The notes beneath the pieces were generated by a model, which saw nothing but the letters and a program-made list of their open reading frames with translations, had not been told where the DNA came from and searched no databases. This document shows positions 5,395-31,639 of a stretch of 46,105 bases of DNA, piece by piece. The stretch spans positions 1 through 46,105 of the forward strand of contig CAZVOR010000001.1 in NCBI GenBank assembly GCA_964628745.1, in the 5' to 3' direction. The position numbers were made by a program, and so were the translations under genes. How positions within the stretch are numbered: the stretch's first letter is position 1; the number at the start of each line of letters is the position of its first letter. The DNA is from an uncultured Halobacteriales archaeon (lineage in GTDB: Archaea; Halobacteriota; Halobacteria; Halobacteriales; Hikarchaeaceae).

Positions 5395-6750
5395 ATGGAA
5401 GCGACCGAGCGGCTCGCGGCGTTCGTGGTCGAGGCGGACCTGGACGACGTGCCAGATGCGGCCCGGACCCACGCGCGGCGGGCCGTCAAGGACTACCTCG
5501 GGGTGGCGCTGTTCGGCTCGACCCACGCCGTCGGCGAGCGGCTGGCGCGGTACGTCGAGCGATTCGAGCCGGGCGACGGCGCGACGCTGCTCGGCGGGGG
5601 GACGGCGAGCCCGACCGGCGCGGCGCTGGCCAACGGCGGGTTCGGGCACGCCGTCGACTACGACGACACCTTCGAATCCATCGTCATCCACCCCACGTCC
5701 CCGGTCTTCCCGGCCGCCCTGGCCGCCGCCGAGCACGCCGACGGCTCGGGCCGGGACGTCCTCTCCGCGTACATGCTCGGCGCCGAGGCGGCCTATCGCG
5801 TCGGCCACGCGACCTACCCGGCCCACTACGACCAGGGCTTTCACGCCACGGGGACGGTCGGCACGTTCGGCGCCGCGGCGGCCGCGGGGTCGGTGCTCGG
5901 CCTCTCGACCGACGAGCTCCGGTGGGCCTTCGGCGTCGCCGCCTCGGCGTCCTCCTCGCTGAAGAAGAACTTCGGGTCGATGACCAAGCCCTACCACGCC
6001 GGGCACGCCGCGCAGGCCGGCCTGCGGGCCGCCCTGCTCGCCGCCGACGGCTTCACCGCCGACCCGGACATCCTCGAGGGGCCCATCGGCTACGGCGCCG
6101 TGATGACACCGGACGGCTCGTACGACCCATCCGAGGTCACCGACGGGCTCGGCGAGACCTGGGCCGTCGAGGACGTCGGATTCAAGCCGTACCCCTCCGG
6201 AGTCATCACGCACGCGGCGATGGAGGCGATGCGCCGGCTCGTCGTCGAGCACGACCTCGAGCCGGCCGATGTCGAGCGCGTCGTGGCGACGCTCGACGAC
6301 GCCGCCTCGGAGATGCTGCACCACGAGCAACCGGCCGACGCGCTGCAGGCGAAGTTCTCCATCGAGTTCTGCCTGGCGGCCGTACTGCGCGAGCGCGACG
6401 TCGGCATCCACGAGTTCACCGACGCGTACGTCGCCGAGCCGGCCACCCGGGAGGCAGTCGCGCTGGTCGAGCGGGCGTTCGAGCCGAACCTCTTCGGCGG
6501 CGAGTTCGCCGGCTACGGCGCGCGGGTGATCGTCGAGACGGTCGACGGCGAGCGGTACGTCGAGGAGGAGCGCCGGGCGCCGGGCGCGCCGTCGAACCCG
6601 CTGCCCGCCGAGCGCTGGGACGCCAAGTACGCCGAGTGCGCGGGGGCCGCCCTGTCGGCGGACGCGGCCGAGCGGGCCGCCGCCGCGGTCGAGTCCCTCG
6701 GGGAGCCGGGCTCGCTCGACTCGCTGCTGTCGGCCGTGCGGACCGGATAG
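5395..6750 (+). CDS. MmgE/PrpD family protein 1 (2-methylcitrate dehydratase superfamily)
   Basis: Length 451 aa. Family landmarks: HAVDYDDT, FHATGTVGTFGAAAAAG, SMTKPYHAGHAAQAG, GFKPYPSG. Confidence 0.9.
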   Translation: MEATERLAAFVVEADLDDVPDAARTHARRAVKDYLGVALFGSTHAVGERLARYVERFEPGDGATLLGGGTASPTGAALANGGFGHAVDYDDTFESIVIHPTSPVFPAALAAAEHADGSGRDVLSAYMLGAEAAYRVGHATYPAHYDQGFHATGTVGTFGAAAAAGSVLGLSTDELRWAFGVAASASSSLKKNFGSMTKPYHAGHAAQAGLRAALLAADGFTADPDILEGPIGYGAVMTPDGSYDPSEVTDGLGETWAVEDVGFKPYPSGVITHAAMEAMRRLVVEHDLEPADVERVVATLDDAASEMLHHEQPADALQAKFSIEFCLAAVLRERDVGIHEFTDAYVAEPATREAVALVERAFEPNLFGGEFAGYGARVIVETVDGERYVEEERRAPGAPSNPLPAERWDAKYAECAGAALSADAAERAAAAVESLGEPGSLDSLLSAVRTG

Positions 6751-13858: not shown

Positions 13859-14248
13859 TGCACTAGGGAGGTCTCGATTCCGCCGCACTCGCGGGTAACT
13901 GCCGACCTCACGGCGATGGCGACCCGAGTTCGTTCGGCGGCGCGGTCCGTCCGGGTCGAGCGCCCTCGCGCGCCCAGGCCTGCGCGCGTGTAACCCAATC
14001 GAGCGTGATTTCAGTATGATTCGGCCAGCGTTTCCCGTCGGCCCGTGTTTCCCGACCGCTGCCCGCCCCCTTCCGCCGGTCGCCCCGCCGACCCGCACTG
14101 CTCGTTCGAGCTCCGCCGGTCCCGTTCGCGCGCTCGGTCCGTGGCCCGCCGCCGACCCGGCTCGACACGACCGCCGATCGCTCCCGGCGCCCGCCAGCCG
14201 ACCCGCCGCGGGACGCCGGCCGTCGGCGACGACGACGCCATACAAAGG

Positions 14249-14256
14249 GTTATTAC
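14249..14256 (+). promoter_or_regulatory. TATA-like box (GTTATTAC) for CoA-transferase 1
   Basis: The box begins 30 nt upstream of ATG 14279. The ACAD promoter at 26119 has the same GTTATT hexamer at the same spacing. Confidence 0.4.
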
Positions 14257-14278
14257 GCTGGTCGAAAACCGACGGCGT

Positions 14279-15538
14279 ATGACCGACGGAGCGTCGGCGT
14301 CGCGCCTGCTCGACGGCATCACCGTGCTGGACCTCACGACCTTCGTCACCGGCGGCTTCGCGACGCTGATGCTCGCCAACCAGGGCGCCGAGGTCATCAA
14401 GGTGGAGCGGCCGGAAGTCGGCGACGACAACCGCCACTCCGGCCCGCCGTTCGTCGACGCCAGCGGCTACGACGGTCCCGGCGTCACGGCGGCCGAGCGC
14501 GGCGAGTCGCCCTACTTCTGGACCGTCAACTACGGCAAGCGGAGCGTCGAGCTGGACCTCAAGTCCGACCCCGCCCGCGAGGCGCTCTACGACCTCGCGG
14601 CCGAGGCCGACGTCTTCGTCGAGAACTTCCGGCCCGGCACGGCCGAGCGGCTCGGCGTGGGCTACGAGGACATCCGCGAGCACAACGAGCAGATCGTCTA
14701 CTGTGCCATCTCGGCGTTCGGCGAGACCGGCCCGTGGAGCCAGCGACCGGGCTACGACCTGCTCGTGCAGGGGACCAGCGGCATCATGTCGGTGACGGGA
14801 CCCGAGGGCGGCGACCCCGTGAAGGTCGGCGTGCCCGAGACCGACCTCATCACGGCGATGTGGTCGGCGTTCGGCATCGTCGGCGCGCTGTTCCGGCGCG
14901 ACCGGACCGGCGAGGGCGAGCGCATCGAGCTCGGCATGCACGACGCCACGCTCCCGTGGCTGACCAAACAGGCCGGCAGGGCGTTCGCCGGGGAGGAACC
15001 CGAGCGGCTCGGCACGAAGGACCCCGTGCTGGCCCCGTACCAGTCCTACCCGACCGCCGACGGCCACCTCAACGTCGGGTGTGCCAACCAGAAGCTCTGG
15101 GGGCAGCTCTGCGAGGCCATCGGCCGCCCCGAGCTCGACGACGACCCCCGGTTCGCGTCCAACGCCGACCGGGTCGAGCACGCCGACGAACTCGAGGCCG
15201 AGCTCGCCGAGGCGTTCGAGCAGCGGACGACCGAGGAGTGGGTGACGCTGCTCGCCGACGAGCACGGCCTGCCGGTCGGGCCGGTGCTCTCGGTCCGGGA
15301 CGCGCTGTACAACGAGCAGACCGAGGCCCGCGGGGTCGTGACCGAGCTCGAACACCCGGCCGCCGGCCCCATCCCGGTCATCGAGCATCCGCTGCGCTTC
15401 CAGCGGGCCGAGTCCGGGTTCGGGGAGGCGCCGCCGCTGCTCGGCGAGGACACCGAGGCCGTGCTGCGCGAGGCGGGCTACGACGACGCCGCCGTCGCGT
15501 CGCTTCGAGACGTCGGCGCCATCCCGGACCGGGAGTGA
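14279..15538 (+). CDS. type III (CaiB/BaiF family) CoA-transferase 1
   Basis: LDGITVLDLTTFVTGGFATLMLANQGAEVIKVERP, NYGKRS, and RPGYDLLVQGTSGIMSVTG (catalytic Asp motif). ATG 14279; upstream ORF codons are not coding-like. Confidence 0.9.
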   Translation: MTDGASASRLLDGITVLDLTTFVTGGFATLMLANQGAEVIKVERPEVGDDNRHSGPPFVDASGYDGPGVTAAERGESPYFWTVNYGKRSVELDLKSDPAREALYDLAAEADVFVENFRPGTAERLGVGYEDIREHNEQIVYCAISAFGETGPWSQRPGYDLLVQGTSGIMSVTGPEGGDPVKVGVPETDLITAMWSAFGIVGALFRRDRTGEGERIELGMHDATLPWLTKQAGRAFAGEEPERLGTKDPVLAPYQSYPTADGHLNVGCANQKLWGQLCEAIGRPELDDDPRFASNADRVEHADELEAELAEAFEQRTTEEWVTLLADEHGLPVGPVLSVRDALYNEQTEARGVVTELEHPAAGPIPVIEHPLRFQRAESGFGEAPPLLGEDTEAVLREAGYDDAAVASLRDVGAIPDRE

Positions 15539-15621
15539 GCGGCCACCACCTGACCGGGAGCGACCGGTCGGCACCACCCGGTTCCCCGGTCCAGCCCCGG
15601 TGACGAACCTTCCACCGACGC

Positions 15622-16650: not shown

Positions 16651-16666
16651 CCGGGCGGCCACCGGG

Positions 16667-16676
16667 ATACTTATCC
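16667..16676 (+). promoter_or_regulatory. TATA-like box (ATACTTATCC) for MmgE/PrpD-2
   Basis: Centred about 26 nt upstream of ATG 16697. Confidence 0.4.
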
Positions 16677-16696
16677 ACGCGCGACCAAGGCCGGCC

Positions 16697-18097
16697 ATGG
16701 ACCGCCCAGACGCGACCGACCGGCTCGTCGAGCACTGCCTGGGGGCCGACCACGGGGGCGCCCCGGACGACGTGAAGGCACAGCTGCGGCACCACCTGCT
16801 CGACCACCTCGGGCTGGTGGTCGGCGGCTACGCCGCGGCCGACTCGACTCCGGCGTTCGAGGGCGGGCTCCGCGGACTCGGCGGCGCCGGCGACGCGGCG
16901 ACGGCGCTTCCGACCGGCGAGCGCCATCCCGCCGACCACGCGGCGCTGTTCAACGGCGCGATGGCGCACAGCCTCGACTTCGACGATACCCACCGCGAGT
17001 CGTCGCTGCATCCCGGGGCGCCGGTCGTCCCCGCCGCGCTGGCCGTCGCCGAGCACGAGGGGGCCCCGACCGAGCGGCTGCTGGCCGGCATCCGGGCCGG
17101 CTACGACGTGACGGCCACCCTCGGCCGGGCCGTCAACCCGGAGGCGCACTACGGCCGGGGCTTTCACATCACCGCGACCTGCGGGACGTTCGGTGCGACG
17201 GCCGCGGCCGGCGTCGTGGCCGGGCTCGACGCCGACGAGCTCGCGGCGGCGTTCGGCGTCAACGGTTCGCAGGCAGCCGGCTCGCTGCAGTTCCTCGCCA
17301 ACGGGGCGTGGAACAAGCGGCTCCATCCCGGGCTGGCCGCGGCCCGCGGCGTGACCGCCGTCTCGCTGGCGCGGGCGGGGTTCAGGGGCTCGGCCGACCC
17401 CGTCGAGGGCCAGTTCGGCTTCTTCGCCGGCTACACCGAGGACCCGGACCCGGCCGCCTTCGACGACCTCGGCGAGCGGGAGGCCGTCCTCGAGACCGCG
17501 CTGAAGCCGTACCCGTGCTGCCGGTACATGCACGCGGCCATAGACGGCCTGCTCGACCTCGATGTCGACCCGGCGGCGGTCGAGTCGGTCCACGTGGCGC
17601 TGCCGAAGTCGGGCGTGACGCTCACCGGCGACCCCATCGACGCCAAGCGCCGGCCGGCGAACTTCGTCGACTGCCAGTTCAGCATGCCGTTCGCCGCGGC
17701 GCTCGCGCTCGCCGAGGGCGAGGCCGGGCTCCGCGCGTTCCTCGACGCCCAGGACCGCCTCGACGACGGCGAGCTCCGCCGACTGATGGACGCCACCGAG
17801 GTCGAGGCCACCGACGAGGTCCGCGCGCTGTTCCCCGAGCGATGGGCCGCCCGGGTGACCGTCCGCGCCGGCGGCAAGGCCCGCGAGCGGTTCGTCGACG
17901 CGGCCCGCGGCGAGCCCGAGAACCCCCTGTCGTGGGACGCGGTCGTCGCGAAGTTCGACGAGCTGACCGGCGCCGCCGGCTGGGACGACCGGACGCGGGC
18001 GGCGGTCGTCGAGGCCGTCGAGGACGTCGAGTCGCGGTCGGTCGAGTCGCTCGTCGGGACGTTCCGCGACGCCGCGGTCGGCGTGGCGGCCGACTGA
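16697..18097 (+). CDS. MmgE/PrpD family protein 2
   Basis: 466 aa. HSLDFDDTH, FHITATCGTFGATAAAG, NKRLHPGLAAARG, LKPYPCCRYMH. It is a distant paralog of the 5395 gene. Confidence 0.9.
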   Translation: MDRPDATDRLVEHCLGADHGGAPDDVKAQLRHHLLDHLGLVVGGYAAADSTPAFEGGLRGLGGAGDAATALPTGERHPADHAALFNGAMAHSLDFDDTHRESSLHPGAPVVPAALAVAEHEGAPTERLLAGIRAGYDVTATLGRAVNPEAHYGRGFHITATCGTFGATAAAGVVAGLDADELAAAFGVNGSQAAGSLQFLANGAWNKRLHPGLAAARGVTAVSLARAGFRGSADPVEGQFGFFAGYTEDPDPAAFDDLGEREAVLETALKPYPCCRYMHAAIDGLLDLDVDPAAVESVHVALPKSGVTLTGDPIDAKRRPANFVDCQFSMPFAAALALAEGEAGLRAFLDAQDRLDDGELRRLMDATEVEATDEVRALFPERWAARVTVRAGGKARERFVDAARGEPENPLSWDAVVAKFDELTGAAGWDDRTRAAVVEAVEDVESRSVESLVGTFRDAAVGVAAD

Positions 18098-18175
18098 CGG
18101 CGCCGGCGGACGGCCGGGTAGTGGGCGTCACCCGCCCATCCGACAGGTCGGTCGCTCGGTCGGGCGGACGGCCGC

Positions 18176-19318
18176 TCAGTCGACGCGGAACTCCTCGAGC
18201 ACGGATTCGTCCAGCTCGACCCCGATGCCGGGCGCGTCGGGGATGGCCACCTGCGGGCCCTCGTTCTCCACCGGGTCGACCGCGAGGTCGTCGCGGATGG
18301 GGTTCGGCGTCCGGTCGAACTCGAGCATCGGCTCGCCCGGGATGGTCGCGATGACCTGCAGGCTCGCGGCCAGCGCGACCGCGCTGCCGAAGACGTGGGG
18401 CATGCACTGGACGTTGTTCGCCGCCGAGAGCGTCGCGACCCGGCGGGTCGAGGTCAGCCCGCCGGCGCTCGTGACGTCCGGCTGGGTGACGCCAACGGCG
18501 CCGGCGTCGAGCACGCGCTCGAACTCGTGGTCGAACGCCCAGCACTCGCCGCCGGCCAGCGGCACGTCGAGCTCGCGGCCGAGCCTCGCGTAGCCGTCGA
18601 CGTCGCGCGGGACGACCGGCTCCTCGAAGAAGAAGACGTCGAGGTCGGCCAGCGCGTGGCCGACGCGCTCGGCGGTCGCCACGTCGTAGGCGTGGTTGGC
18701 GTCGGTGGAGAGCCTGACCTCCGGCCCGACGGCCTCGCGGACAGCCCGGACGAGCTCGACGTCCTCGCGCCAGCCGTAGGGGAAGTCCGGGTGCCGGTGC
18801 AGCCCGATCTTGGTCTTCAGCGCGTCGAACCCCGCCGCGACGTGTCCCTCGGCCTCGCGGACGACCGACTCCCGGATGGCCTCGAAGCTGTCGACGTCCG
18901 GCCAGAAGTGCCCCGTGGCGTACGCCCGGACGGAGTCACGGCGGCGGCCGCCCAGCAGCGTCGAGACCGGCTCGCCGAGCGCCTTCCCGCGGGCGTCCCA
19001 CAGCGCGATGTCGACGCCGGAGATGACGCTGGCGGGCGCGTAGGAGTGAAAGGAGGACGTCAGCTTGAACAGCAGGTCGTCGTGGACCTGCTCGACGGCG
19101 CTCGCGTCCCGGCCGACGAGCCACGGCGCCACGTACTCCTCGACGAGCTCGCGGTTGCCGGCGACGGGCCCCCAGCACTCGCCCCACCCCTCGACCCCGG
19201 CGTCGGTCTCGACCCTGACGAGGCAGTACTCGCGGCTGCCGATCCACTTCTGGGCGTTCGCGAAGCGGTCGTCGAGCTCGCGGCGCAGCGGGACGGCCTC
19301 GACGTCGGTGACGTGCAT
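18176..19318 (-). CDS. enolase-superfamily protein 1 (mandelate racemase / muconate lactonizing enzyme family, acid-sugar-dehydratase-like)
   Basis: KTK (KxK) motif in FDALKTKIG. Putative metal ligands are in STDANHAY, FFFEEP and LAGGECW. An Asp/His pair appears in TQPDVTSAGG and CMPHVFG. ATG 19318. Confidence 0.9.
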   Translation of the reverse strand: MHVTDVEAVPLRRELDDRFANAQKWIGSREYCLVRVETDAGVEGWGECWGPVAGNRELVEEYVAPWLVGRDASAVEQVHDDLLFKLTSSFHSYAPASVISGVDIALWDARGKALGEPVSTLLGGRRRDSVRAYATGHFWPDVDSFEAIRESVVREAEGHVAAGFDALKTKIGLHRHPDFPYGWREDVELVRAVREAVGPEVRLSTDANHAYDVATAERVGHALADLDVFFFEEPVVPRDVDGYARLGRELDVPLAGGECWAFDHEFERVLDAGAVGVTQPDVTSAGGLTSTRRVATLSAANNVQCMPHVFGSAVALAASLQVIATIPGEPMLEFDRTPNPIRDDLAVDPVENEGPQVAIPDAPGIGVELDESVLEEFRVD

Positions 19319-19490
19319 GGGTCGGGCTACCCTGGCCGCCCGTAAGAACCGTTGGGATTGCGGTAACGACCGCGTCGGGACCGTGGCCGGTGGCGGCCGC
19401 GTCAGCCGGTCGTCACGGGGGCTCGTCCCCGGCGGCCGTGACCGAAGCGGAAGGTACAAATCGAGGCTGCAGTTGGGCTACACTACCCGA

Positions 19491-20753: not shown

Positions 20754-21722
20754 CTACAGGGCGAGCGCTGAGAACCTCCGGAGCTGGGTCCGCTGGTCGC
20801 CGGTCGGGAAGCGGACCACGAACGTCTCGACCCCGGCCTCGCGGTAGGCCTCGAGCGTCGCCGCCACGTCCTCGCGAGCGCCCATCGCCCCTCGCTCGAG
20901 GAGGTACTCGTCCGTCGGGTCGGGCCGGGCGGGGTAGTACGCGCGGTGGAACGCCTTCGCCTGCTCGAGCACCGCTTCCCGGTCGCCGACGAGCACGTCG
21001 AGGTACAGCGCCGGGTCGAGCGCGGCGGGGTCGCGACCGGCCGCCTTGAGGGCGTCCCGGGCGTTTTCGAGGCCCGTCGGATAGTCGTCGGGGTCGACGC
21101 CGATGGGCAGCCAGCCGTCGCCGTGGTCGGCCAGCCGCTCGCGGATGCGACGCGGGAACCCGTCCGCCACGTCGAACGCCGCCGAGGCGACGTAGACCGG
21201 CGGCGGGCTGGCCGGGCCGAAGCCGATGCTCGCGCCGGACAGGGAGACGTGGTCGCCGTCGAAGTCGACCGCCTCGCCGCCCCAGAGCGCCCGGGTCGCC
21301 GCGAGCGTCTCGTCGAGCCGGGCGCCGCGGGTCGCGAAGTCGAGGTCGAGGTTCGCGTACTCGGCCTCGACGTCCTCGCCGATGCCGACGCCGACGCCCA
21401 GCCGGAGCCGCCCGCCCGACAGCTGGTCGAGCGTCGCCGTCCGGTGGGCGAAGTTGACCGGGTGCCGCAGTCCCGGCAGGTGCACCGCCGTCCCAAGGTC
21501 GAGCCCGTCGGTCGCCGCGCCGACCGCCGCGAGCGTCGTGACGGCGTCGAGCCGGGGCTTGGCCAGCACGCTGTCGCCCACCCACGCCGACCGGAAGCCG
21601 AGCGCCTCCGCGCGGACGGCGAGGCCGACGACGTCGGCCTGGGCCTTCGCCGCGAGCGTCGCCGGGTCGTCGCTGCCGAGCACCGCGCCGCGCGTCGGCA
21701 GCAGGTAGCCGTAGTGCGCCAT
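20754..21722 (-). CDS. LLM-class (luciferase-like) flavin/F420-dependent oxidoreductase
   Basis: MAHYGYLLPTRG, FRSAWVGDS, GGRLRLGVGVG. Length 322 aa, typical of the family. Confidence 0.9.
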   Translation of the reverse strand: MAHYGYLLPTRGAVLGSDDPATLAAKAQADVVGLAVRAEALGFRSAWVGDSVLAKPRLDAVTTLAAVGAATDGLDLGTAVHLPGLRHPVNFAHRTATLDQLSGGRLRLGVGVGIGEDVEAEYANLDLDFATRGARLDETLAATRALWGGEAVDFDGDHVSLSGASIGFGPASPPPVYVASAAFDVADGFPRRIRERLADHGDGWLPIGVDPDDYPTGLENARDALKAAGRDPAALDPALYLDVLVGDREAVLEQAKAFHRAYYPARPDPTDEYLLERGAMGAREDVAATLEAYREAGVETFVVRFPTGDQRTQLRRFSALAL

Positions 21723-21836: not shown

Positions 21837-22619
21837 ATGGTCGCCTACGACGCCTACGAGCACATCACGGTGGACGTCGCCGGCGGGGTGGCGACGCTCG
21901 AGCTCCACCGGCCCAAGGTGTACAACGCCCTGAACACGGAGACGATGCACGACCTCCGCCGGGCGTTCGGCGAGGTGCAGCTCGACCGGTCAATCGACGC
22001 CGTGGTCATCACCGGCGAGGGGGACGACGCGTTCTCCTCGGGCGCCGACATCGGCCAGTACGCCGGCCCGGCCGCCGAGCACGGCCACCAGATGGACCGC
22101 CAGCGGCTGTTCTACGAGGACGTCTACCGGGCGGCGCACGAGCTGCACTGCCCGACCATCGCCAAGATCAACGGCTACTGCGTCGGCGGGGGCTTCATCC
22201 TCGCGACCTACTGCGACCTCCGGGTCGCGGCCGACCACGCGAAGTTCGGGGTCCCGACGACGAACATCGGGCAAATCCCCGGCGGCGGCTCGACCTACCG
22301 GGCGACCCAGCTGGTCGGCGAGGCCAAGGTCAAGGAGCTGGTGTTCACCGCCGGGCTCATCGACGCCGAGGAGGCCCACCGCATCGGGCTGGTCAACCGG
22401 GTCGTCCCCGCGGGGGAGCTCGACGACGAGGTAGCCGGCCTCGTCGACGCCATCCAGAGCACGGGCCGGCGGGCGGTGAAGAACTCCAAGCGGGCCATCA
22501 ACTACTCGGCCGACGCGCCCGACCTCGAGTCGGCCCACGCCCACGAGGCCGAGGTATGGTGGGAGCAGTTCGACACCGCGGAGCGCGAGCGGCTCGTCGA
22601 CGAGTTCAACGAGGGCTGA
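21837..22619 (+). CDS. crotonase-fold (enoyl-CoA hydratase/isomerase superfamily) protein, atypical active site
   Basis: LHRPKVYNAL, FSSGADI and GYCVGGG oxyanion-hole elements. Both canonical hydratase Glu positions appear substituted (GGGFILATYCD, FGVPTTNIG). Confidence 0.9.
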   Translation: MVAYDAYEHITVDVAGGVATLELHRPKVYNALNTETMHDLRRAFGEVQLDRSIDAVVITGEGDDAFSSGADIGQYAGPAAEHGHQMDRQRLFYEDVYRAAHELHCPTIAKINGYCVGGGFILATYCDLRVAADHAKFGVPTTNIGQIPGGGSTYRATQLVGEAKVKELVFTAGLIDAEEAHRIGLVNRVVPAGELDDEVAGLVDAIQSTGRRAVKNSKRAINYSADAPDLESAHAHEAEVWWEQFDTAERERLVDEFNEG

Positions 22620-22621
22620 CG

Positions 22622-23917
22622 ATGGGGGACGCCCCGGCCGGCGGCGATTCGGCCGCCGGCAACGATTCGAACGCCCCGGCCGACGGACCGCTGGCCGGCG
22701 TGAGCGTCGTCGAGATGACGGCCCACCGGGCCGGCCCGTTCTGCGGCGCGCTGCTGGCCGACCTCGGCGCCGACGTCGTCAAGATCGAGCGACCCGGTAC
22801 GGGGGACCCCACGCGCACGCAGGGCCCCGGCCCGGCGATGCGCTCGGGCTACTTCCAGGCGAACAACCGGAACAAGCGCTCGGTGACGCTTGACCTGAAG
22901 CGGGAGGCGGGCGTCGAGGCCGCCCGCTCCCTGCTCGAGGCCGCGGACGTCTTCGTCGAGAACTTCGGTTACGGCGTCACCGACCGCCTCGGTATCGGCT
23001 ACGACGACGTGACCGCGGTGAACCCGGACATCGTCTACGCGTCCATCAAGGGCTACGGCGAGACGGGGCCGTACCGGGAGAAGCCCGGCCTGGACCTCAT
23101 CCTCCAGGCCGAGGGCGGCATCATGTCGGTGACGGGTCCGGAGGGCGGCGACCCCGTGAAGGTCGGCCAGGCCATCGGCGACCTCGCCACGGGCACGTTC
23201 GCCGCCATGGGGGTCCTCGCGCGGCTGTACCAGCGGGAGACCGGCGCCCGTGGCGGGCCGGACGGCGCGAGCGCTGGCGCCGCGGACGCGACCAGCGACG
23301 ACTCGTTCGTCGGCGAGCTCGACGTCGGGCTGTTCGACGCCATCGTCCACCTCATGAACGAGTACCTCACCTGGTACTCCATTGACGGCACCGTGCCGGG
23401 CCCGCAGGGGACCTCCCACCAGGCGCTCGTCCCCTACCAGCTGTTCGAGACGGCCGACGGCTACCTCGTGACGGGGGTCCCGTCGGACGACCGCTGGGAC
23501 GACTTCGTCGACCTGCTCGGTCGCGAGGAGCTCCGGGAGTACCCGACCAACGACGACCGCGTCGAGCACCGCGAGACCGTCGTCGGCGCCATCGAGGAGG
23601 AGTTCGCGGCCGAGCCGACGGCCTACTGGACCGAGGCGCTCGACGAGGCCGGCTTCCCGGTCGGACCGCTGTCCGACGTCGAGGCCGTCGTCGACCACGA
23701 ACAGACGCGGGCCCGCGGGCTCGTCCGGGAGCACGTCGACGCGGGGGGCGAGCGCGTGCTGCTGCCCGGCCACCCCGTCAACTTCCCGGAGTACGACGCC
23801 CCCATCCGCTCCCCCGCGCCGGAGCTGGGCGCGCACACCGACGAGGTGTTCGGCGCAGTCGCCGACGACCAGACGACGCTCGACCGGTGGCGCGATTCGG
23901 GGGCGTTCGGTGACTGA
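22622..23917 (+). CDS. type III (CaiB/BaiF family) CoA-transferase 2
   Basis: VVKIERPGTGDPTR, NNRNKRS, and KPGLDLILQAEGGIMSVTG (catalytic Asp motif). It starts 2 nt after the crotonase stop. A Gly/Ala/Asp-rich insertion lies after LYQRETG. Confidence 0.9.
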   Translation: MGDAPAGGDSAAGNDSNAPADGPLAGVSVVEMTAHRAGPFCGALLADLGADVVKIERPGTGDPTRTQGPGPAMRSGYFQANNRNKRSVTLDLKREAGVEAARSLLEAADVFVENFGYGVTDRLGIGYDDVTAVNPDIVYASIKGYGETGPYREKPGLDLILQAEGGIMSVTGPEGGDPVKVGQAIGDLATGTFAAMGVLARLYQRETGARGGPDGASAGAADATSDDSFVGELDVGLFDAIVHLMNEYLTWYSIDGTVPGPQGTSHQALVPYQLFETADGYLVTGVPSDDRWDDFVDLLGREELREYPTNDDRVEHRETVVGAIEEEFAAEPTAYWTEALDEAGFPVGPLSDVEAVVDHEQTRARGLVREHVDAGGERVLLPGHPVNFPEYDAPIRSPAPELGAHTDEVFGAVADDQTTLDRWRDSGAFGD

Positions 23918-26039
23918 CCCGACGGACGGGGCGGACGGCCCGGCGGACCGACCAGCCGGGGGCGGCCGGCCGGACCTCGACCCGCTCGTCGAGCCCGACT
24001 CGCTCGCCGTCGTCGGGGCGAGCCCCGACTCGTGGTACGCCTCGCGACTCATCGACAACCTGCTCGACTACGGCTACGCCGGCGACGTCTACTTCGTCAA
24101 CCCCGGCCGGGAGGAGGCCTGGGACCGGCCCTGCTACGACAGCCTCTCGGACGTCCCGGCGGTCGTCGACCTCGCCGTCGTCTCCATCCCGCGGGAGCCC
24201 GCCGTCGAGGTGGTCCGCGAGGCGGGGGAGATGGGGGTACCGGCGGCGCTGGTCATCACGGCCGGCTTCGCCGAGGCCGACGAGCGCGGGGAGGCGCTCC
24301 AGGCCGAGCTTTCGGCCATCGCCGAGGAGTCGGGCATCCGGGTCTGCGGGCCGAACACCATCGGCTACGCGAGCATGCACGCCGAGACGGTGCTCACGGC
24401 GACCTGTTCCCGCCGGCCCGAGCCGGGACGCATCGGCCTGGTGAGCCAGTCCGGCGCGCTCGCGTTCACGACGTTCTACGAGCGGGCGACCGACGAGGAC
24501 GTCGCGTTCTCGCACATCGTCTCGACGGGCAACGAGGCCGACCTGGCGCTCACCGACTACGTCGAGTACCTCGCGGCCGACGACCGCGTGGACGTCATCT
24601 GCTGCTACGTCGAGGGGCTCGCCGACGCCCGGCGGTTCGTCGAGGTCGCCGCCCGGGCGACGCGCTCGGGGACGCCCGTGCTCGCCGTCAAGGTCGGCCG
24701 CTCCGAGGTCGCCGACGCGGCGACGCTCTCGCACACGGGGTCGACGACCGGCAACGACGCGGTCTGGGACGCCGCGCTGGCGCAGGCCGGCGTCCAGCGG
24801 GTCGCCGACGTCCCGGACCTCGTCGGGCTCGCGAGCGTCCACGCGCGCTACGACCCGCCGGCGGGCGATCGCGTCTGCGTCCTCTCGACCAGCGGCGGGC
24901 TCGCCAGCCTTCTGGCGGATTTCGTCAGCGAGCGAGGGCTCGAACTGCCGCCGCTGTCGGCGGAGACCGAGCGTGCGCTGCTCGACATGGAGGACCTGCT
25001 GACGTTCGGCTCGCTGCCGAACCCCGTCGACATCCGCGGCTACGGCTCGTACGTGCTCGACGACATCGCCGACGTCGTCCTCGCCGACGACGCGTTCGAC
25101 GCGTACCTCGTCGCCATCGGGATGTCGGCGGTCGACGACCACGCCAGCGACGTCGCCGCGGCGATAGAGCGCGTCGTCGAGCGCGCGGACGCCCCCGTGC
25201 TCGTCTGCTGGACGGGGCGGAAGGAGCCCGGCGTGCTCCCCGACCCGCAGCCCTACGAGCGACTGCGCGAGTCGGTGCCGCTGTTCTACGACCCAGAGCG
25301 CTGCGTCGAGGCGCTGGCGTCGCTGGTCCGCGCGCGGGAGGCCCGAGAGCGGGTCCGCGAGCCGCTGGCGCTGCCCGAGCCGAGCCCCGACGCGGCGGAC
25401 CTGCCGGCGGACTCGGTGCTGGACTGGGCGGCCGCCGCCGGGCTGCTCGCCGAGCACGGCGTCGAGGTCGAGCCGAGCCGCGTGGTCGAGGACGCCGACG
25501 GGGCCGCCGCGGCCGCCGGCGAGCTCGGCTACCCCGTGGCGATGAAGGTCGACTCGCCCGCCGTGCCGCACCGCAACCGGGTCGGCGGGGTCGCGCTCGA
25601 CGTGCCCGACGCCGACGCCGCCCGGACGGCGTACGAGGACATCGTCGCGAACGTGGCCGATGCCGTCCCCGACGCCGGGGCGGAGCGGGTCGTCGTCCAG
25701 CGACAGGTCGAGGACGGCGCCGAGGCGCTGGTCGGCGCGCTCCGCGACGAGGGGTTCGGGCCGGTGCTCGCCGTCGGCTCCGGCGGGGTGCTCGTCGAGT
25801 CGGTCGACGACCGCGCCCTGCGGCTGGCGCCGGCCCGGGTCGAGGACGCCCGCGAGGCCATCGGGGAGACCACGCTGGCCGAGCGGCTCGGCGAGGCCGA
25901 CCGGGCGGCGCTGGCCGAGCTGGCCGCGGCGGCCAGCCGGCTGGCCGCCGAGCGGCCCGTCGCCGAGCTCGACCTCAACCCGGTCATCGTGGCGGACGGC
26001 CGCTGCCACGTCGTGGACGCGCTGGTGCGGACGCGGTAG
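23910..26039 (+). CDS. ADP-forming acyl-CoA synthetase (acetate--CoA ligase [ADP-forming] family, fused alpha-beta)
   Basis: CoA-binding start SLAVVGAS, GPNTIGY, and phosphohistidine loop TLSHTGSTTG. The C-terminal ATP-grasp half contains GYPVAMKVDSP. The GTG start overlaps the CoA-transferase 2 stop by 8 nt. Confidence 0.9.
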   Translation: MTDPTDGADGPADRPAGGGRPDLDPLVEPDSLAVVGASPDSWYASRLIDNLLDYGYAGDVYFVNPGREEAWDRPCYDSLSDVPAVVDLAVVSIPREPAVEVVREAGEMGVPAALVITAGFAEADERGEALQAELSAIAEESGIRVCGPNTIGYASMHAETVLTATCSRRPEPGRIGLVSQSGALAFTTFYERATDEDVAFSHIVSTGNEADLALTDYVEYLAADDRVDVICCYVEGLADARRFVEVAARATRSGTPVLAVKVGRSEVADAATLSHTGSTTGNDAVWDAALAQAGVQRVADVPDLVGLASVHARYDPPAGDRVCVLSTSGGLASLLADFVSERGLELPPLSAETERALLDMEDLLTFGSLPNPVDIRGYGSYVLDDIADVVLADDAFDAYLVAIGMSAVDDHASDVAAAIERVVERADAPVLVCWTGRKEPGVLPDPQPYERLRESVPLFYDPERCVEALASLVRAREARERVREPLALPEPSPDAADLPADSVLDWAAAAGLLAEHGVEVEPSRVVEDADGAAAAAGELGYPVAMKVDSPAVPHRNRVGGVALDVPDADAARTAYEDIVANVADAVPDAGAERVVVQRQVEDGAEALVGALRDEGFGPVLAVGSGGVLVESVDDRALRLAPARVEDAREAIGETTLAERLGEADRAALAELAAAASRLAAERPVAELDLNPVIVADGRCHVVDALVRTR

Positions 26040-26118
26040 CTCCTCGAGGGTCCCGGCCGGGCGGAGCGGGTTCCAGGGACGTTCGCGCCCTCTGGACCCG
26101 TTCGCCAGACTCCGCAGA

Positions 26119-26126
26119 GTTATTGT
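26119..26126 (+). promoter_or_regulatory. TATA-like box (GTTATTGT) for the acyl-CoA dehydrogenase gene
   Basis: The box begins 30 nt upstream of ATG 26149, inside the 109-nt gap after the synthetase gene. Confidence 0.4.
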
Positions 26127-26148
26127 CGCGCCGGACGACGGTCCGACG

Positions 26149-27351
26149 ATGACCGTCTCGTTCGACACGGTGGCGCTCACCGAGTCACAGCGGCTCGTCC
26201 GGAAGAGCATCCGCGAGCTGATGGCCGAGTTCGACCGCGAGTACTGGCGCGAGCGCGCCCGGACCGGCGAGTACCCGCAGGACTTCGTCGACGAGCTGGC
26301 GGCCGGCGGCTGGCTGGGCGCGCTGCTGCCGGAGGCCTACGGCGGCGCCGGGATGACGACCGAGGAGGTCGTCGTGATGATGGAGGAGATCGCCGCGGGC
26401 GGCGGCGGGTTCTCCGCCGCCCAGGCCGTCCACGGCGGCATCTACAACTCCGTGCCGCTCGTGAAGTACGGCAGCGAAGCGCTCAAGGAGCGGCTGCTCC
26501 CAAAGGTCGCCGACGGCGAGGTCGCCATCCAGGCGTTCGGGCTCACGGAGCCCAACGCGGGCTCGGACTCGACGGCCATCGAGACGCGCGCGGAGCGCGA
26601 CGGCGACGAGTACGTCATCGACGGCGGGAAGATATGGACCTCGCGGGTGGACGCCTCCGACTACCTGCTGCTCGTCGCTCGGACGACCCCGCGGGACGAG
26701 GTCGAGAAGCGCACGCGCGGCATCTCGATGTTCCTCGTCGACCTCGCGGACGCCGAGTCGCAGGGCGCCTTCGAGAAGGAGGCCATCCCGAAGTCCGTGA
26801 GCGAGTTCGTCCACTCCTACCAGCTGTGGTTCGACGGGCTTCGCGTGCCGGCCGAGCACCTCGTCGGCGAGGAGGGCCGCGGATTCTACCAGGTGCTCGA
26901 CGGCCTCAACGAGGAGCGACTGGTCATCGCCGCGGAGTGCCTCGGGCTCGGGGAGGTCGCCCTCGAGCGCGGCGTCGAGTACGCCGGCGAGCGCGAGGTG
27001 TTCGGCCATCCCATCGGGCAGAACCAGGCCGTCCAGCACCCGCTGGCCGCGGCGTACGCCCACCTCGTCGCCGCCAGGGAGGTCACCTACTCGGCCGCGG
27101 CGCGCCTCGAGTCGCTCGACCAGAAGGCCGCCGGCGCCCGCGCGAACGCCGCGAAGTACCTCGCGGCGGAGGCCGCCTTCGAGGCCGCCGACGCCGCCGT
27201 CCAGACCCACGGCGGCTTCGGGGTCGCCACGGAGTACGACGTCGAGCGCTACTTCCGGGAGGCCCGGCTGACCCGGCTGGTGCCCATCACCCAGCAGCTC
27301 GTGCTCAACTACCTCGGCGAGCAGGTGCTCGGGCTCCCGCGGTCGTACTGA
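26149..27351 (+). CDS. acyl-CoA dehydrogenase family protein
   Basis: FGLTEPNAGSDS, DGGKIWTS, FGHPIGQNQAVQHPLA, THGGFG. The C-terminal YEGT-type catalytic Glu motif appears replaced (RLVPITQQLVLN). Confidence 0.9.
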   Translation: MTVSFDTVALTESQRLVRKSIRELMAEFDREYWRERARTGEYPQDFVDELAAGGWLGALLPEAYGGAGMTTEEVVVMMEEIAAGGGGFSAAQAVHGGIYNSVPLVKYGSEALKERLLPKVADGEVAIQAFGLTEPNAGSDSTAIETRAERDGDEYVIDGGKIWTSRVDASDYLLLVARTTPRDEVEKRTRGISMFLVDLADAESQGAFEKEAIPKSVSEFVHSYQLWFDGLRVPAEHLVGEEGRGFYQVLDGLNEERLVIAAECLGLGEVALERGVEYAGEREVFGHPIGQNQAVQHPLAAAYAHLVAAREVTYSAAARLESLDQKAAGARANAAKYLAAEAAFEAADAAVQTHGGFGVATEYDVERYFREARLTRLVPITQQLVLNYLGEQVLGLPRSY

Positions 27352-27887: not shown

Positions 27888-29015
27888 TCAGTCGACGCGG
27901 AGCGCCTCGACCGCGTCGTCGTCGAGCTCGACGCCCAGGCCGGGGCCCTCCGGCGCCGGGATGGTGCCGCCGTCGCGGACGTAGATGGCCTCCGGGTTGG
28001 CGACGTACGGCCCCGCGACGTACTCGCCCGGGTCGTCGACGGTGTCGTCGAGCACCGCGAATTCGATGAGCCGGCAGGCCCGCGAGGCGGCCGCGACGTG
28101 GAGGCTCGCCGCGTAGTTGACCGCCGGCCCGAGCGCGTGGGGCACCAGCCGCTTGTTGAACGCCTCGACGAGCGTCGCGACGCGGCGCGCGCCGGTCACG
28201 CCGCCGACGTAATCCAGCGACGGCTGGTAGATCTCCAGTGCGTTCGCCCGGAGGTGGTCCACCGCGCGGTAGTGCGGCGTGTGCGTCTGGAAGCCCGAGA
28301 TGGGCACGGAGACCCGCCGGTTGAGCTCGGCCTGGCCCTCGACGTCCGTGTGGGAGATGGGCTCCTCGAACCACTCGAGCTCGAGCTCGCTCGCGGTCTT
28401 CGCGACGGCCAGCGCGTCGTCGAACTCGTAGGAGGTGTTGGCGTCGATGGCCAGCCCGAAGTCGTCCGGGATGCCGTCGGTGATGGTCCGCATCCGCTCG
28501 CGGTCCCGCTCGACGCCGAAGCCGGCACCGACCTTCATCGCCGCAAAGCCCTTCTCCGCGAGCCAGTTCGCCGACTCGGCGAGCTCCTCGGGGGTCTTCG
28601 AGACCGGGAACGTCGCGTACGCCGTCACCTCGTTGACGGGGCCGCCGAGCAGGTCGGCGACCGGCCGGCCTGCGTGCTTGCCCTTGATGTCCCAGAGCGC
28701 CTCGTCGAGCGCCGACAGGGCCCCCCAGGCGCCGGCGCGCTTGACGTGGACGTACAGCTCGTGCCAGCGGGCCGTCGCCGCGAGCGGATCCTTCCCGACG
28801 ATGTGCTCGCCCATCGCCTCGATGCTCTCGGCGAGAAAGCGGTTGTGCTCGACCGACCGGTAGAACGACTCGCCGAGGCCGGTGAGCCCGGCGTCGGTGT
28901 GGACCTTCACGACGACCGACGAGATCTCGATCGACCGGTCGGCGACCTCCGCCGGCAGCGAGGCGGCGTCGACGGCGCTCCCCAGGACGACGGTCTCGAT
29001 GTCCGTTATCTCCAT
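27888..29015 (-). CDS. enolase-superfamily protein 2 (MR/MLE family), divergent catalytic set
   Basis: AIDANTSY, WFEEP and LVPHALG match the family. By eye alignment with paralog 1 it has KVG instead of KTK, SGFQ instead of GGE, and QPS instead of QPD. Confidence 0.9.
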   Translation of the reverse strand: MEITDIETVVLGSAVDAASLPAEVADRSIEISSVVVKVHTDAGLTGLGESFYRSVEHNRFLAESIEAMGEHIVGKDPLAATARWHELYVHVKRAGAWGALSALDEALWDIKGKHAGRPVADLLGGPVNEVTAYATFPVSKTPEELAESANWLAEKGFAAMKVGAGFGVERDRERMRTITDGIPDDFGLAIDANTSYEFDDALAVAKTASELELEWFEEPISHTDVEGQAELNRRVSVPISGFQTHTPHYRAVDHLRANALEIYQPSLDYVGGVTGARRVATLVEAFNKRLVPHALGPAVNYAASLHVAAASRACRLIEFAVLDDTVDDPGEYVAGPYVANPEAIYVRDGGTIPAPEGPGLGVELDDDAVEALRVD

Positions 29016-30448: not shown

Positions 30449-31639
30449 GTGCTGCTCGATGACCTGACCGTCCTCGACGTCACGCAGGTCGTCGCCGGCT
30501 CGTTCGCCTCGATGTCGCTGGCCGACCTCGGGGCGGACGTGCTGAAGGTCGAGCGCCCCGACGGCGGCGACATCGGCCGGTCGAACCCGCCGCACGTCGC
30601 CGGACGGAGCGCCTACTTCGCCTCAGTCAACCGGAACAAGCGCTCGCTGGCGCTGGACCTGTCGACCGAGCGTGGCCGCGACGCCGTGCTCGACCTGGCC
30701 GCCGCGGCCGACGTGCTCGTCGAGAACCACCCGCCGGGCCGGATGGACCGCTTCGGTCTCGGCTACGACGCCGTCGCCGAGCGCAACCCCGGCGTCGTCT
30801 ACTGCTCGATCACCGGCTTCGGCCAGACCGGCCCGTACGCCGACGTCCCGGCGCTCGACATGGTGGCCCAGGCGACCAGCGGCCACATGGGACTGACCGG
30901 TCCCCCCGACGGGCCGCCGCACCGCGCCGGGCTCCCCATCGGCGACCTCGCCGGGGCGGCGTACGGGGTCCAGTCGGTGCTCGCGGCGCTGCTCCGCCGC
31001 GAGCGTACGGGCGAGGGCGCCTACCTCGACGTCTCGATGACCGACTCGCTGGTCGCCTGGCTGTCGGTCCGGGCCGGCTACACGTTCGCGACGGGCGAGC
31101 CCTACCCGCGGCTGGGCAACGAGCTGCGCGAGTTCGTCCCGTACAACGTCTACGCGACCGCCGACGGCCACCTCGCGGTCATCGTCGCGACCGACCGCCA
31201 CTGGCGACGGCTCTGTGCGGCCCTCGACCGGCCGGAGCTCGGCGAGGACGGGCGGTTCGCGACGGTCGACGGCCGGCGGGAGCGCCGGGGAGCGGTCAAC
31301 GAGCTGCTCGGGGAGACGCTCGCCGAGCGACCGACGGCGGACTGGTTCGAGCGGCTGGCCGACCGCGGCGTCCCCGCCGCGCCGGTCCACGACACGGCGA
31401 GCGTCTGGGAGGACGAGCAGGTGCAGGCCAGGGAGCTCTACCGACCCATGCCGGTCGACGGCGAGCCGTTCGGCGCCATCGCGTATCCCGCGCGGGTCCG
31501 CGGCGAGCGCTTCGAGCTCGACCGCGGCGTGCCGGCCGTCGGGGAGCACAGCCGGGAGGCGCTCGGTGAGGTCGGCTACGACGACGCGACGGTCGACGAG
31601 CTGGTCGACGCCGGCGTCGTCGGCACGCCCGACGGCTGA
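30449..31639 (+). CDS. type III (CaiB/BaiF family) CoA-transferase 3
   Basis: LDDLTVLDVTQVVAGSFASMSLADLGADVLKVERP, VNRNKRS, and VPALDMVAQATSGHMGLTG (catalytic Asp motif). GTG start. A TATA-like GCTATAAGCC lies about 78 nt upstream, which implies a leader. Confidence 0.9.
   Translation: MLLDDLTVLDVTQVVAGSFASMSLADLGADVLKVERPDGGDIGRSNPPHVAGRSAYFASVNRNKRSLALDLSTERGRDAVLDLAAAADVLVENHPPGRMDRFGLGYDAVAERNPGVVYCSITGFGQTGPYADVPALDMVAQATSGHMGLTGPPDGPPHRAGLPIGDLAGAAYGVQSVLAALLRRERTGEGAYLDVSMTDSLVAWLSVRAGYTFATGEPYPRLGNELREFVPYNVYATADGHLAVIVATDRHWRRLCAALDRPELGEDGRFATVDGRRERRGAVNELLGETLAERPTADWFERLADRGVPAAPVHDTASVWEDEQVQARELYRPMPVDGEPFGAIAYPARVRGERFELDRGVPAVGEHSREALGEVGYDDATVDELVDAGVVGTPDG

Follow-up and report, generated by a model that had tools for sequence, protein, structure and literature searches.

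Gene content and organisation of the locus

A 46,105-nucleotide (nt) stretch of DNA from an uncultured Halobacteriales archaeon (GenBank assembly GCA_964628745.1, contig CAZVOR010000001.1, positions 1 to 46,105 of the forward strand), hereafter called the window, was analysed around four consecutive genes. These encode a crotonase-fold protein, a coenzyme A (CoA) transferase, an acyl-CoA synthetase and an acyl-CoA dehydrogenase (ACAD). The window is very rich in GC (65-77%), and its encoded proteins show an acidity typical of Halobacteria. The features of the cluster are the following (IVD, isovaleryl-CoA dehydrogenase):

21837..22619, + strand: crotonase-fold protein, 260 amino acids (aa), without either hydratase glutamate (Ile121 and Thr141 in their places); Pfam ECH_1
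22622..23917, + strand: family III (CaiB/BaiF) CoA-transferase, 431 aa; Pfam CoA_transf_3
23910..26039, + strand: ADP-forming acyl-CoA synthetase of the fused alpha-beta type, 709 aa, beginning with GTG; assigned by its Pfam domain set
26120..26126, + strand: TATA-like GTTATTG, read from the sequence; its GTTATT lies ∼24-29 nt 5′ of the ACAD ATG
26149..27351, + strand: ACAD, 400 aa, with an IVD/CaiA-type glutamate on helix G; three ACAD domains

All four families were confirmed by Pfam: the crotonase matched ECH_1 with 185 bits (cut-off 27), the transferase matched CoA_transf_3 with 384 bits, and the synthetase contained CoA_binding_2, Succ_CoA_lig and ATP-grasp_5 domains. The TGA of the crotonase gene ends at position 22619 and the ATG of the transferase gene is found at 22622, leaving a gap of 2 nt in a translationally coupled pair. 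From the upstream stop at 23472 to the conserved N-terminal part of the synthetase, the GTG at 23910 is the sole in-frame start; being the only possible one, it makes the 8-nt overlap with the transferase gene real. The ACAD gene starts with the ATG at 26149, and the synthetase stop lies 109 nt before it. This layout had been given in a preliminary description of the window, and its coordinates, strands and spacings were all correct. The GTTATT element is a plausible haloarchaeal TATA box that might act as an internal promoter and yield a leaderless ACAD transcript. A scan for sigma-70 promoters and intrinsic terminators, which is of a type ill-suited to archaea, found nothing. The ACAD gene probably belongs to the same operon and is not a separate unit, since in relatives the gap that precedes it is just 39-56 nt and a MaoC hydratase gene comes next.

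The crotonase belongs to a clade that has lost both hydratase glutamates

The crotonase was aligned with solved crotonases using phmmer and, using MAFFT, with CaiD, MenB and ScpB of Escherichia coli (from the K-12 genome) and with rat enoyl-CoA hydratase (ECH). In the MAFFT alignment, the columns of the two catalytic glutamates of the rat enzyme read as follows:

Rat ECH: Glu144 column, Glu; Glu164 column, Glu
CaiD: Glu144 column, Glu; Glu164 column, Glu
ScpB: Glu144 column, Glu; Glu164 column, Pro
MenB: Glu144 column, Val; Glu164 column, Gly
Window crotonase: Glu144 column, Ile121; Glu164 column, Thr141

The phmmer alignments concurred, placing Ile121 (in GGGFI) in the Glu144 column and Thr141 (in FGVPT) in the Glu164 column. 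The replacement of both glutamates by Ile and Thr, proposed earlier by eye, was thus borne out by two kinds of alignment, and it extends to the whole clade. The pair of glutamates that characterises enoyl-CoA hydratases of the EC 4.2.1.17 type is missing from the window crotonase and from all of its 120 closest homologs (66-82% identical), every one of which reads GGG[LFM][IV] and F[GA][VI]P[TV]. All the named homologs are from Halobacteria, where they are annotated as 'enoyl-CoA hydratase/isomerase family protein'; the others are unnamed metagenome proteins. While both glutamates are gone throughout, the clade retains the oxyanion-hole loops FS[AS]GADI and GGG. The window protein keeps them as FSSGADI and GGG, together with an RPxxxNAL motif that we take to be part of the CoA site.

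To place this clade, 1.8 billion representatives of 50%-identity clusters were searched exhaustively with phmmer, and the best 150 were inspected. Both glutamates were kept in 132 of these. They were both absent from three full-length representatives (P0241, P0242 and P0251), comprising two sister clusters (49-52% identity) and one protein of 552 aa; a 127-aa fragment (P0257) had Thr at the second glutamate column. Look-ups of the two sister clusters gave solely metagenomic, generically named proteins. Because the nearest relatives are ordinary hydratases with both glutamates, the loss is derived, and these comparisons indicate that it is a fixed trait of the clade and not a matter of chance. 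The clade is a small, derived and strongly conserved offshoot of true hydratases in which the hydratase machinery has been lost.

Hydration or double-bond isomerisation (e.g. the interconversion of itaconyl-, mesaconyl- and citraconyl-CoA) might still be performed with the help of other residues, such as His82 or Tyr75, or of a carboxylate of the substrate. An AlphaFold (AF2) model of the crotonase (pLDDT 84.6) superimposed on 5z7r with a TM-score of 0.89. Its best fold matches were Clostridium acetobutylicum Crt, Nmar_1308 and the 3-hydroxypropionyl-CoA dehydratase of M. sedula, so that both fold and closest sequences are those of short-chain hydratases. Our own comparison with the C. acetobutylicum crotonase in the phmmer alignment singled out seven residues that vary little or not at all within the clade and are not those of that enzyme: Tyr75, His82 (≥90%), Arg88, Gln89, His104, Gln146 and Trp241. 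Several of these lie on the lid helix, where the confidence of the model drops, and the invariance of polar residues in the lid region would suit a hydratase or isomerase, as would the absence of a MaoC hydratase gene from the window. MenB-type enzymes, too, presumably function without the two glutamates. However, crotonase-type isomerases keep one Glu or Asp, to our knowledge, and the alignments place neither at any of the known positions in the window crotonase. Moreover, the operon of relatives includes a dedicated MaoC/Ich-like hydratase, and Ich-type enzymes perform both the isomerase and the hydratase steps (PMC12290011). We consider a residual hydratase or isomerase activity improbable.

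The crotonase could alternatively be a non-catalytic pseudoenzyme, the role of which would be to bind CoA esters and to aid or control the CoA-transferase with which it is co-translated. All known catalytic acid/base residues are absent, and the gene is almost always coupled to that of the transferase. Nevertheless, identities of 66-82% are maintained across genera, the oxyanion-hole loops and the clade-specific polar residues are conserved, and no crotonase is known to us that serves a family III transferase as a structural partner. This explanation seems very improbable.

Membership of the characterised families that do without the glutamate pair was then considered. The crotonase scored 138.7 bits with the MenB model TIGR01929 (cut-off 342.7), and the column of the SFD aspartate of MenB reads QIP. 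With the BadI model TIGR03210 the score was 129.4 (cut-off 467.6). The His of the SAGHDI motif of ScpB/YgfG, a methylmalonyl-CoA decarboxylase (MMCD), is replaced by Ala70, and the NCBIfam MMCD model does not figure in the best 25 of 73 matches; this bears on membership of that family, not on decarboxylase chemistry. That His and Tyr140, which follows the second loop, are presumably the catalytic residues of ScpB; on our own reading, the column taken as that of Tyr140 holds Gly in the window crotonase. The preliminary description had noted that crotonases with such a pattern include MenB-type enzymes, decarboxylases and hydrolases. The lack of the glutamates stands, but neither the other catalytic residues nor the model scores resemble those of MenB, BadI or MMCD. 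On these alignments and scores, the crotonase is not a MenB, BadI, MMCD or CaiD.

In the genomes of two relatives, a second crotonase gene adjoins that of the glutamate-less one: positions 10957-11748 of locus L001 (Halopenitus salinus; motifs GGSMN/FGITPAKLG) and positions 5259-5987 of locus L042 (GGAFE/FGITPAKIG). These proteins resemble E. coli ScpB (GGAFE/FSMTPVNLG), and their genes are followed by those for two family III CoA-transferases and TctAB.

The acyl-CoA dehydrogenase has a catalytic base of the isovaleryl-CoA dehydrogenase type

In alignments with solved ACADs, the column of Glu376 of medium-chain acyl-CoA dehydrogenase (MCAD) holds Pro in the window protein (RLVPIT versus IVGEGT), and the second Glu of its LNEER motif falls in the Glu254 column of human IVD. 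The human IVD sequence used here agrees fully with that of 1ivh (100% identity, residues 204-394). In E. coli CaiA the two positions are arranged alike, HER occupying the column of IVD Glu254 and Gly that of Glu376, and both the Pro and the helix-G Glu are conserved in the 120 nearest homologs of the window ACAD (72-80% identical). The alignment with the 1ivh sequence thus supports the earlier claim that this ACAD lacks the C-terminal glutamate of MCAD and carries one of the IVD type. Such a base is a known ACAD variant, neither exotic nor a loss of function; it is common to IVD, CaiA and a widespread ACAD subfamily found in proteobacterial clusters of the itaconate/methylsuccinate type. In our view it is also chemically sensible, since methylsuccinyl-C4-CoA is isovaleryl-CoA with one methyl group swapped for a carboxylate.

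The closest non-archaeal matches were proteobacterial proteins (from Bosea, Ralstonia, Sphingobium and Roseomonas; 46-50% identical), which share with the window ACAD the motifs GLN[AE]ER..IAAEC and RE.RL...[VA]PI[TS] and, at the C-terminus, LG[LM]P[RK]S[YF]; identity to CaiA was 26%, and the CaiA model gave 156 bits (cut-off 540). In Bosea, the ACAD gene follows those for a RipC/Ccl-like CoA-ester lyase, a MaoC protein and a CaiB/BaiF transferase, with two PrpD-family genes nearby. The order is transferase, CoA-ester lyase, MaoC and ACAD in Ralstonia, and ACAD, transferase and PrpD in Sphingobium. In the itaconate clusters of Pseudomonas aeruginosa and Cupriavidus necator, the ACAD acts as a dehydrogenase of (RS)-methylsuccinyl-C4-CoA, and the PrpD-family protein always encoded beside it is a methylsuccinate isomerase (PMC12290011, PMC9875883), an enzyme almost exclusive to Pseudomonadota (PMC12290011). 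Judging from identity, motifs and gene context, the window ACAD is probably an archaeal member of the kind recently characterised in these itaconate/methylsuccinate clusters.

The Bosea cluster (Bosea sp. F3-2 plasmid pB32-2, locus L101, positions 3065-19001) also contains a pair of genes for a thiamine diphosphate (TPP)-dependent protein of the PRK06154 family, similar to acetolactate synthase (ALS), and a CoA-transferase. Roughly half of the haloarchaeal loci have the same TPP protein/transferase pairing next to the crotonase module.

Closest relatives of the transferase and the synthetase

The best solved relative of the transferase was human SUGCT, a dicarboxylate enzyme. The catalytic Asp is kept in the sequence GDLATG, where it aligns with that of SUGCT, and this together with the profile match identifies a family III CoA-transferase. 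The best NCBIfam models were those of the succinate-glutarate and succinyl-CoA:mesaconate transferases; the score was 266 bits on the succinate-glutarate model (cut-off 750), and 96 on the CaiB model (cut-off 413).

For the synthetase, the best solved relatives were the ADP-forming 4-hydroxybutyrate- and 3-hydroxypropionate-CoA ligases of Nitrosopumilus. Its SHTG motif, which we take to be the phospho-histidine site, is conserved (SHTGS aligns with MSHTGA of 8wzu). The domain set and the SHTG loop are those of the NDP-forming acyl-CoA synthetases (ACD superfamily), so that the suggestion of an archaeal ADP-forming synthetase in the place of an AMP-forming ligase proved right. In some bacteria, an ADP-forming succinyl-CoA synthetase can activate itaconate (PMC12290011).

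The combination of families would fit an E. coli caiABCD-like carnitine operon and, loosely, ordinary fatty-acid beta-oxidation, for which the substitutions described above would be irrelevant. However, both hydratase glutamates are absent from the entire crotonase clade while CaiD has both; scores on the CaiA, CaiB, CaiD, MenB and BadI models are far below the cut-offs; the window encodes neither a thiolase nor a 3-hydroxyacyl-CoA dehydrogenase; and the neighbouring genes are of dicarboxylate type. Ordinary beta-oxidation can effectively be dismissed, as can a carnitine pathway of the cai type. The parallel drawn earlier with the cai operon is consequently valid for family composition and general logic, but a specific link to carnitine is not, given the Glu/Glu pair of CaiD and the low CaiA and CaiB scores. 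The loss of the glutamates and the dicarboxylate-type neighbours likewise make a plain fatty-acid route very unlikely, in agreement with the earlier argument for chemistry other than plain beta-oxidation.

The four genes form the core of a conserved haloarchaeal operon

An 80-locus genome scan yielded 41 loci with crotonase orthologs. In 31 of the 41 loci, the crotonase gene was directly followed by an ortholog of the transferase. Near this pair lay an ortholog of the second family III transferase of the window (14045-15538; 21 loci), a glycolate-oxidase-like flavoprotein of ∼990 aa carrying Fe-S and CCG domains (21 loci), a TPP protein of ALS-like type that matches PRK06154 (20 loci) and a tartrate-dehydrogenase-like gene (10 loci); TctABC transporters, major facilitator superfamily (MFS) transporters and IclR regulators were other common neighbours. 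The counts of these further neighbours are lower bounds, since the gene caller, which relies on GC content at third codon positions (GC3), missed genes in loci of lower GC content as well as the window's own transferase. The TPP protein was considered as an oxalyl-CoA decarboxylase, in an oxalate Frc/Oxc reading of the loci, and this was rejected since it matches the uncharacterised PRK06154 model first and ALS-like models next.

An ACAD gene was near the crotonase in just four of the 41 loci, which suggested that the four-gene arrangement was rare. This was overturned by the finding of the full operon on plasmids of Haladaptatus salinisoli and Halorussus aquaticus, where crotonase, transferase, synthetase, ACAD, MaoC dehydratase and IclR genes occur in the same order, with an annotated 8-nt overlap between transferase and synthetase and 39-40 nt between synthetase and ACAD. 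Synthetase orthologs (60% identity) occupy the same position in Haladaptatus and Halorussus, and the synthetase-ACAD adjacency, with the same spacing, recurs in H. halobius and Halorussus limi. Locus L088, from a Halobacteriales metagenome-assembled genome (MAG), has crotonase, synthetase, ACAD, MaoC and 3-hydroxyacyl-CoA dehydrogenase (3HCDH) genes, and in Natrialba magadii a single block comprises the genes for ACAD, MaoC, a family III transferase and PrpD; in Halorubrum and Haloferax, the loci of ACAD orthologs have an AcetylCoA_hydro-type CoA-transferase instead of one of family III. The best NCBIfam model for the MaoC protein of the Haladaptatus operon was that of the RipB/Ich itaconyl-CoA hydratase (175 bits over the full profile; cut-off 340). 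Together, the four genes constitute the core of a conserved operon of haloarchaea, undescribed in the literature searched.

Alternatively, the crotonase might be a CoA-ester decarboxylase, and the crotonase-transferase pair a self-contained decarboxylation cycle running on a CoA loop, in which acid plus product-CoA gives carboxy-acyl-CoA, and this gives product-CoA plus CO2. The substrates would be of malonyl type (malonate, methylmalonate, tartronate) or vinylogous (glutaconyl- or aconityl-CoA, yielding itaconyl- or mesaconyl-CoA). In favour of this, the two-gene module stands alone in most genomes, adjoining TctABC di-/tricarboxylate transporters; an MMCD-like second crotonase adjoins it in Halopenitus and in a Natronomonas MAG, and TcuA and PrpD-family genes occur in related islands. 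Both glutamates have been lost, to apolar replacements, with the oxyanion hole kept, a pattern which we take to be that of the MMCD/ScpB, polyketide ECH2 and CarB decarboxylases. On the other hand, Ala70 stands in the column of the ScpB histidine, the MMCD model is missing from the 25 best matches listed, and the branched C5 intermediates that the ACAD and MaoC imply (mesaconyl- and citramalyl-CoA) are not decarboxylatable by enolate chemistry. A self-contained decarboxylation cycle of this kind seems rather unlikely.

A probable pathway for branched or carboxylated short acyl-CoAs

Most likely, the operon serves the catabolism of branched or carboxylated short acyl-CoAs, and not fatty-acid beta-oxidation or a cai-type pathway; the acids degraded are probably branched C5 compounds, such as methylsuccinate or itaconate. 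Gene order, coupling, family assignments, the conserved substitutions, synteny and the likeness of ACAD and MaoC to proteins of itaconate clusters are observed; the class of substrate, the way the flux runs and the reaction of the crotonase are inferred, as follows. The synthetase would prime the pathway by converting free acid, ATP and CoA into the first acyl-CoA, and the transferase would then move CoA from the product, or from succinyl- or acetyl-CoA, to the incoming short di- or tricarboxylic acid, following the CoA-loop logic of the cai, caffeate and oxalate systems. The ACAD would convert an acyl-CoA that is carboxylated and 3-branched, like methylsuccinyl-C4-CoA, into an enoyl-CoA of the mesaconyl-C4-CoA type by oxidation; its helix-G base matches that of IVD, the substrate of which is 3-branched. 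Hydration would be carried out not by the crotonase but by a MaoC/Ich-type hydratase, present in the operon of relatives and, in this genome, either encoded elsewhere or absent. The crotonase, by means of its oxyanion hole and CoA site and with no Glu acid/base pair, would stabilise a thioester enolate during the cleavage of a C-C bond.

Two reactions may be envisaged for the crotonase. It could be a retro-aldol lyase acting on a 3-hydroxyacyl-CoA of the citramalyl-CoA type, this being the only function of the itaconate pathway for which the operons have no gene, or it could decarboxylate a carboxylated acyl-CoA. The leading guess is C-C cleavage, by lyase or decarboxylase action, over hydration, because the enolate-stabilising oxyanion hole alone has been kept. 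Overall, an operon working by this mechanism, with C-C cleavage by the crotonase and within a dicarboxylate island, is the explanation we favour, at a probability of roughly 0.5.

Several observations weigh against it. None of the four core proteins reaches any NCBIfam equivalog cut-off, and neither a MaoC hydratase nor a Ccl-type lyase is encoded in the 46-kb window. In the crotonase, a base for the retro-aldol reaction is not evident, the only candidates being Tyr75, His82, Arg88, Gln89 and Gln146. Most crotonase-transferase pairs lack ACAD and MaoC genes and neighbour TctABC, ALS-like TPP, glycolate-oxidase-like and tartrate-dehydrogenase-like genes instead; the substrate of the pair may therefore differ from that of the ACAD. 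A nearby lyase is missing, too, from haloarchaeal ACAD-MaoC clusters that have no crotonase, which weakens the argument from a missing lyase. Orthology of the ACAD to the characterised PA0879/Q0K3E4 dehydrogenase is presumed. The Ralstonia ACAD has a 91% identical counterpart in Cupriavidus that might have linked it to the C. necator enzyme characterised earlier, but the genes around this counterpart (transferase, HpcH lyase, pyruvate carboxylase, MaoC, ACAD, TctC) do not include PrpD and are not the published five-gene cluster. Finally, searches of the literature turned up nothing relevant on a characterised crotonase/transferase pair of haloarchaea or on glutamate-less crotonases, and no biochemistry of any member of the clade.

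Itaconate and the branched C5 dicarboxylates related to it occur as immunometabolites and as products of fungi, and they serve as building blocks of polymers. Their catabolism has been described in bacteria (PMC12290011, PMC9875883). An operon with Mcd- and Ich-like enzymes, no recognisable lyase and a glutamate-less crotonase offers concrete proteins for expression and assay. Tentatively, and with less conviction than attaches to the operon as a whole, the glutamate-less clade might catalyse a primary-metabolism reaction new to the fold, either as a metal-free retro-aldol lyase of the citramalyl-CoA type or as a vinylogous decarboxylase of the aconityl-/glutaconyl type, within what would be the first archaeal route for itaconate, methylsuccinate or tricarboxylates. 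A retro-aldol lyase would replace the HpcH/CitE lyase, and a vinylogous decarboxylase would yield itaconyl- or mesaconyl-CoA. Should the crotonase cleave C-C bonds, or be a non-hydratase of another kind, it would represent a new functional class in a well-studied superfamily, and the blanket hydratase/isomerase annotation of its homologs would be corrected.

The surrounding di- and tricarboxylate island

The operon sits in a larger island for the catabolism of di- and tricarboxylic acids, the main genes of which are these (PEP, phosphoenolpyruvate):

5395..6750, + strand: second MmgE/PrpD-family protein, PrpD_a (Pfam), at the edge of the island; 57% identical ortholog in L088
8584..9480, - strand: protein of the isocitrate lyase (ICL)/PEP mutase family (Pfam), closest to methylisocitrate lyase (prpB model, 339 bits; cut-off 354)
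14045..15538, + strand: second family III CoA-transferase, CoAT_a (Pfam); orthologs 60-81% identical in 21 of the 41 loci
16697..18097, + strand: MmgE/PrpD-family protein, PrpD_b (Pfam), a candidate dicarboxylate isomerase, dehydratase or decarboxylase
30449..31639, + strand: third family III CoA-transferase, CoAT_c (Pfam, 409 bits)

Orthologs of PrpD_b (58-69% identity) are found near the ACAD gene in L088, in locus L093 and on five plasmids, and the protein is 43-44% identical to the PrpD-family products encoded beside the ACAD homologs of Bosea and Sphingobium. A 77% identical ortholog of the ICL/PEP mutase gene lies beside the crotonase pair in locus L087. The best NCBIfam match of CoAT_c was succinyl-CoA:mesaconate CoA-transferase (303 bits, under the cut-off of 700). 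The genes common to the islands of the window and its relatives include the two PrpD genes and those for the second transferase, a thioesterase, an enolase-superfamily protein and the ICL/PEP mutase protein, as well as MFS and sugar-type ATP-binding cassette (ABC) transporters. The islands of relatives hold, in addition, TcuA (tricarballylate dehydrogenase), cupin and tartrate-dehydrogenase-like genes; no MaoC, IclR, TcuA or tartrate-dehydrogenase-like gene occurs in the 46 kb of the window.

In islands syntenic with the window, tcuA was located at positions 27872-29287 of L098 (a plasmid of Halomarina sp. BND7) and 31304-32743 of L103 (a plasmid of Haladaptatus salinisoli), adjoining PrpD-family, cupin, ACAD/MaoC or ICL-family genes. 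This context hints that tricarboxylates feed the same pathway.

The three paralogous family III transferases of the window (14045-15538, 22622-23917 and 30449-31639) lie within 18 kb, and none of them reaches an equivalog cut-off; interleaved with them are enolase-superfamily genes (18176-19324 and 27888-29015, both on the - strand) and two MFS transporter genes. The thioesterase open reading frame (ORF) of 358 aa (15622-16698, - strand) is over-extended, its 4HBT domain being confined to about the last 120 residues (∼15645-15990). On the opposite strand, positions 16267-16647 encode a homolog (50% identity) of a conserved hypothetical protein of ∼160 aa that in relatives is encoded between the second CoA-transferase and PrpD_b. 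An ORF of the Phosphodiest/alkaline-phosphatase family (4176-5489, - strand) and that of PrpD_a overlap at their 5′ ends by ∼95 nt as called, and therefore at least one of the two start codons is probably wrong; the two genes are also neighbours in Halomarina sp. BND7.

Divergent from the crotonase gene, positions 20754-21722 (- strand) encode a luciferase-like (F420-type) oxidoreductase (TIGR03619, 161.6 bits; cut-off 166.9), an arrangement repeated in a close relative (L007; 64% identity). In the region 34209-38382 (+ strand), a protein with CARDB/NPCBM-associated domains is directly followed by an MMPL/RND-type membrane protein of 830 aa; after these come an ABC ATPase and a protein of 476 aa that Pfam does not match. 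A 535-aa protein encoded at 43588-45195 (- strand) consists of four rhodanese domains.

Comparison with known systems

The E. coli caiTABCDE operon draws on the same four enzyme families and the same logic, in which a ligase primes, a family III transferase recycles CoA, and an ACAD and a crotonase take part, and CaiA has its glutamate at the IVD-type position. Unlike the window proteins, CaiD keeps both glutamates and CaiC is an AMP-forming ligase, and the scores on the CaiA and CaiB models are far under their cut-offs. The window crotonase shares with MenB, BadI, MMCD/ScpB, polyketide ECH2 and HCHL the crotonase fold, an intact oxyanion hole and the lack of a Glu/Glu pair, and with MenB, which has Val and Gly there, non-acidic residues at both glutamate columns; it differs from these enzymes in being closest, by both sequence and fold, to ordinary short-chain hydratases. 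Human IVD (1ivh) resembles the window ACAD in its helix-G glutamate (Glu254 column) and in having no glutamate at the MCAD Glu376 column. However, identity over the C-terminal half is ∼26%, the Pro-Ile of the window ACAD corresponds to Ala-Gly in IVD, and the window protein has the LGLPRSY tail of the dicarboxylate-cluster subfamily.

The Nitrosopumilus maritimus ligases (8wzu, 9y43) have the fused ACD architecture and SHTG motif of the synthetase, but a different genomic context, and the synthetase scored 322 and 261 bits against equivalog cut-offs of 1300. Analogies with 3-sulfinopropionyl-CoA desulfinase and with dimethylsulfoniopropionate (DMSP; DmdBCD, DddX) and acrylate (AcuN/AcuK) metabolism were tried and rejected, as the ACAD keeps its catalytic glutamate and the model scores are low; DmdD and AcuK-type hydratases, moreover, presumably keep the glutamate pair.

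The itaconate cluster of P. aeruginosa and C. necator (Ict, Ich, Ccl, Mcd and Msi; Gonner et al. 2025, PMC12290011; de Witt et al. 2023, PMC9875883) has in common with the haloarchaeal system a family III CoA-transferase, an ACAD of the subfamily to which the homologs in such clusters belong (46-50% identity, motifs in common), a hydratase of the MaoC/Ich type (where haloarchaea are concerned, in the operons of relatives), genes of the PrpD family adjoining that of the ACAD, and di-/tricarboxylate transporters nearby. It differs in that the haloarchaeal system is archaeal and its island has no citramalyl-CoA lyase of the HpcH/CitE type; the haloarchaeal MaoC, absent from the window, is of the Yersinia RipB type, and the haloarchaeal operon adds an ADP-forming synthetase and the glutamate-less crotonase.

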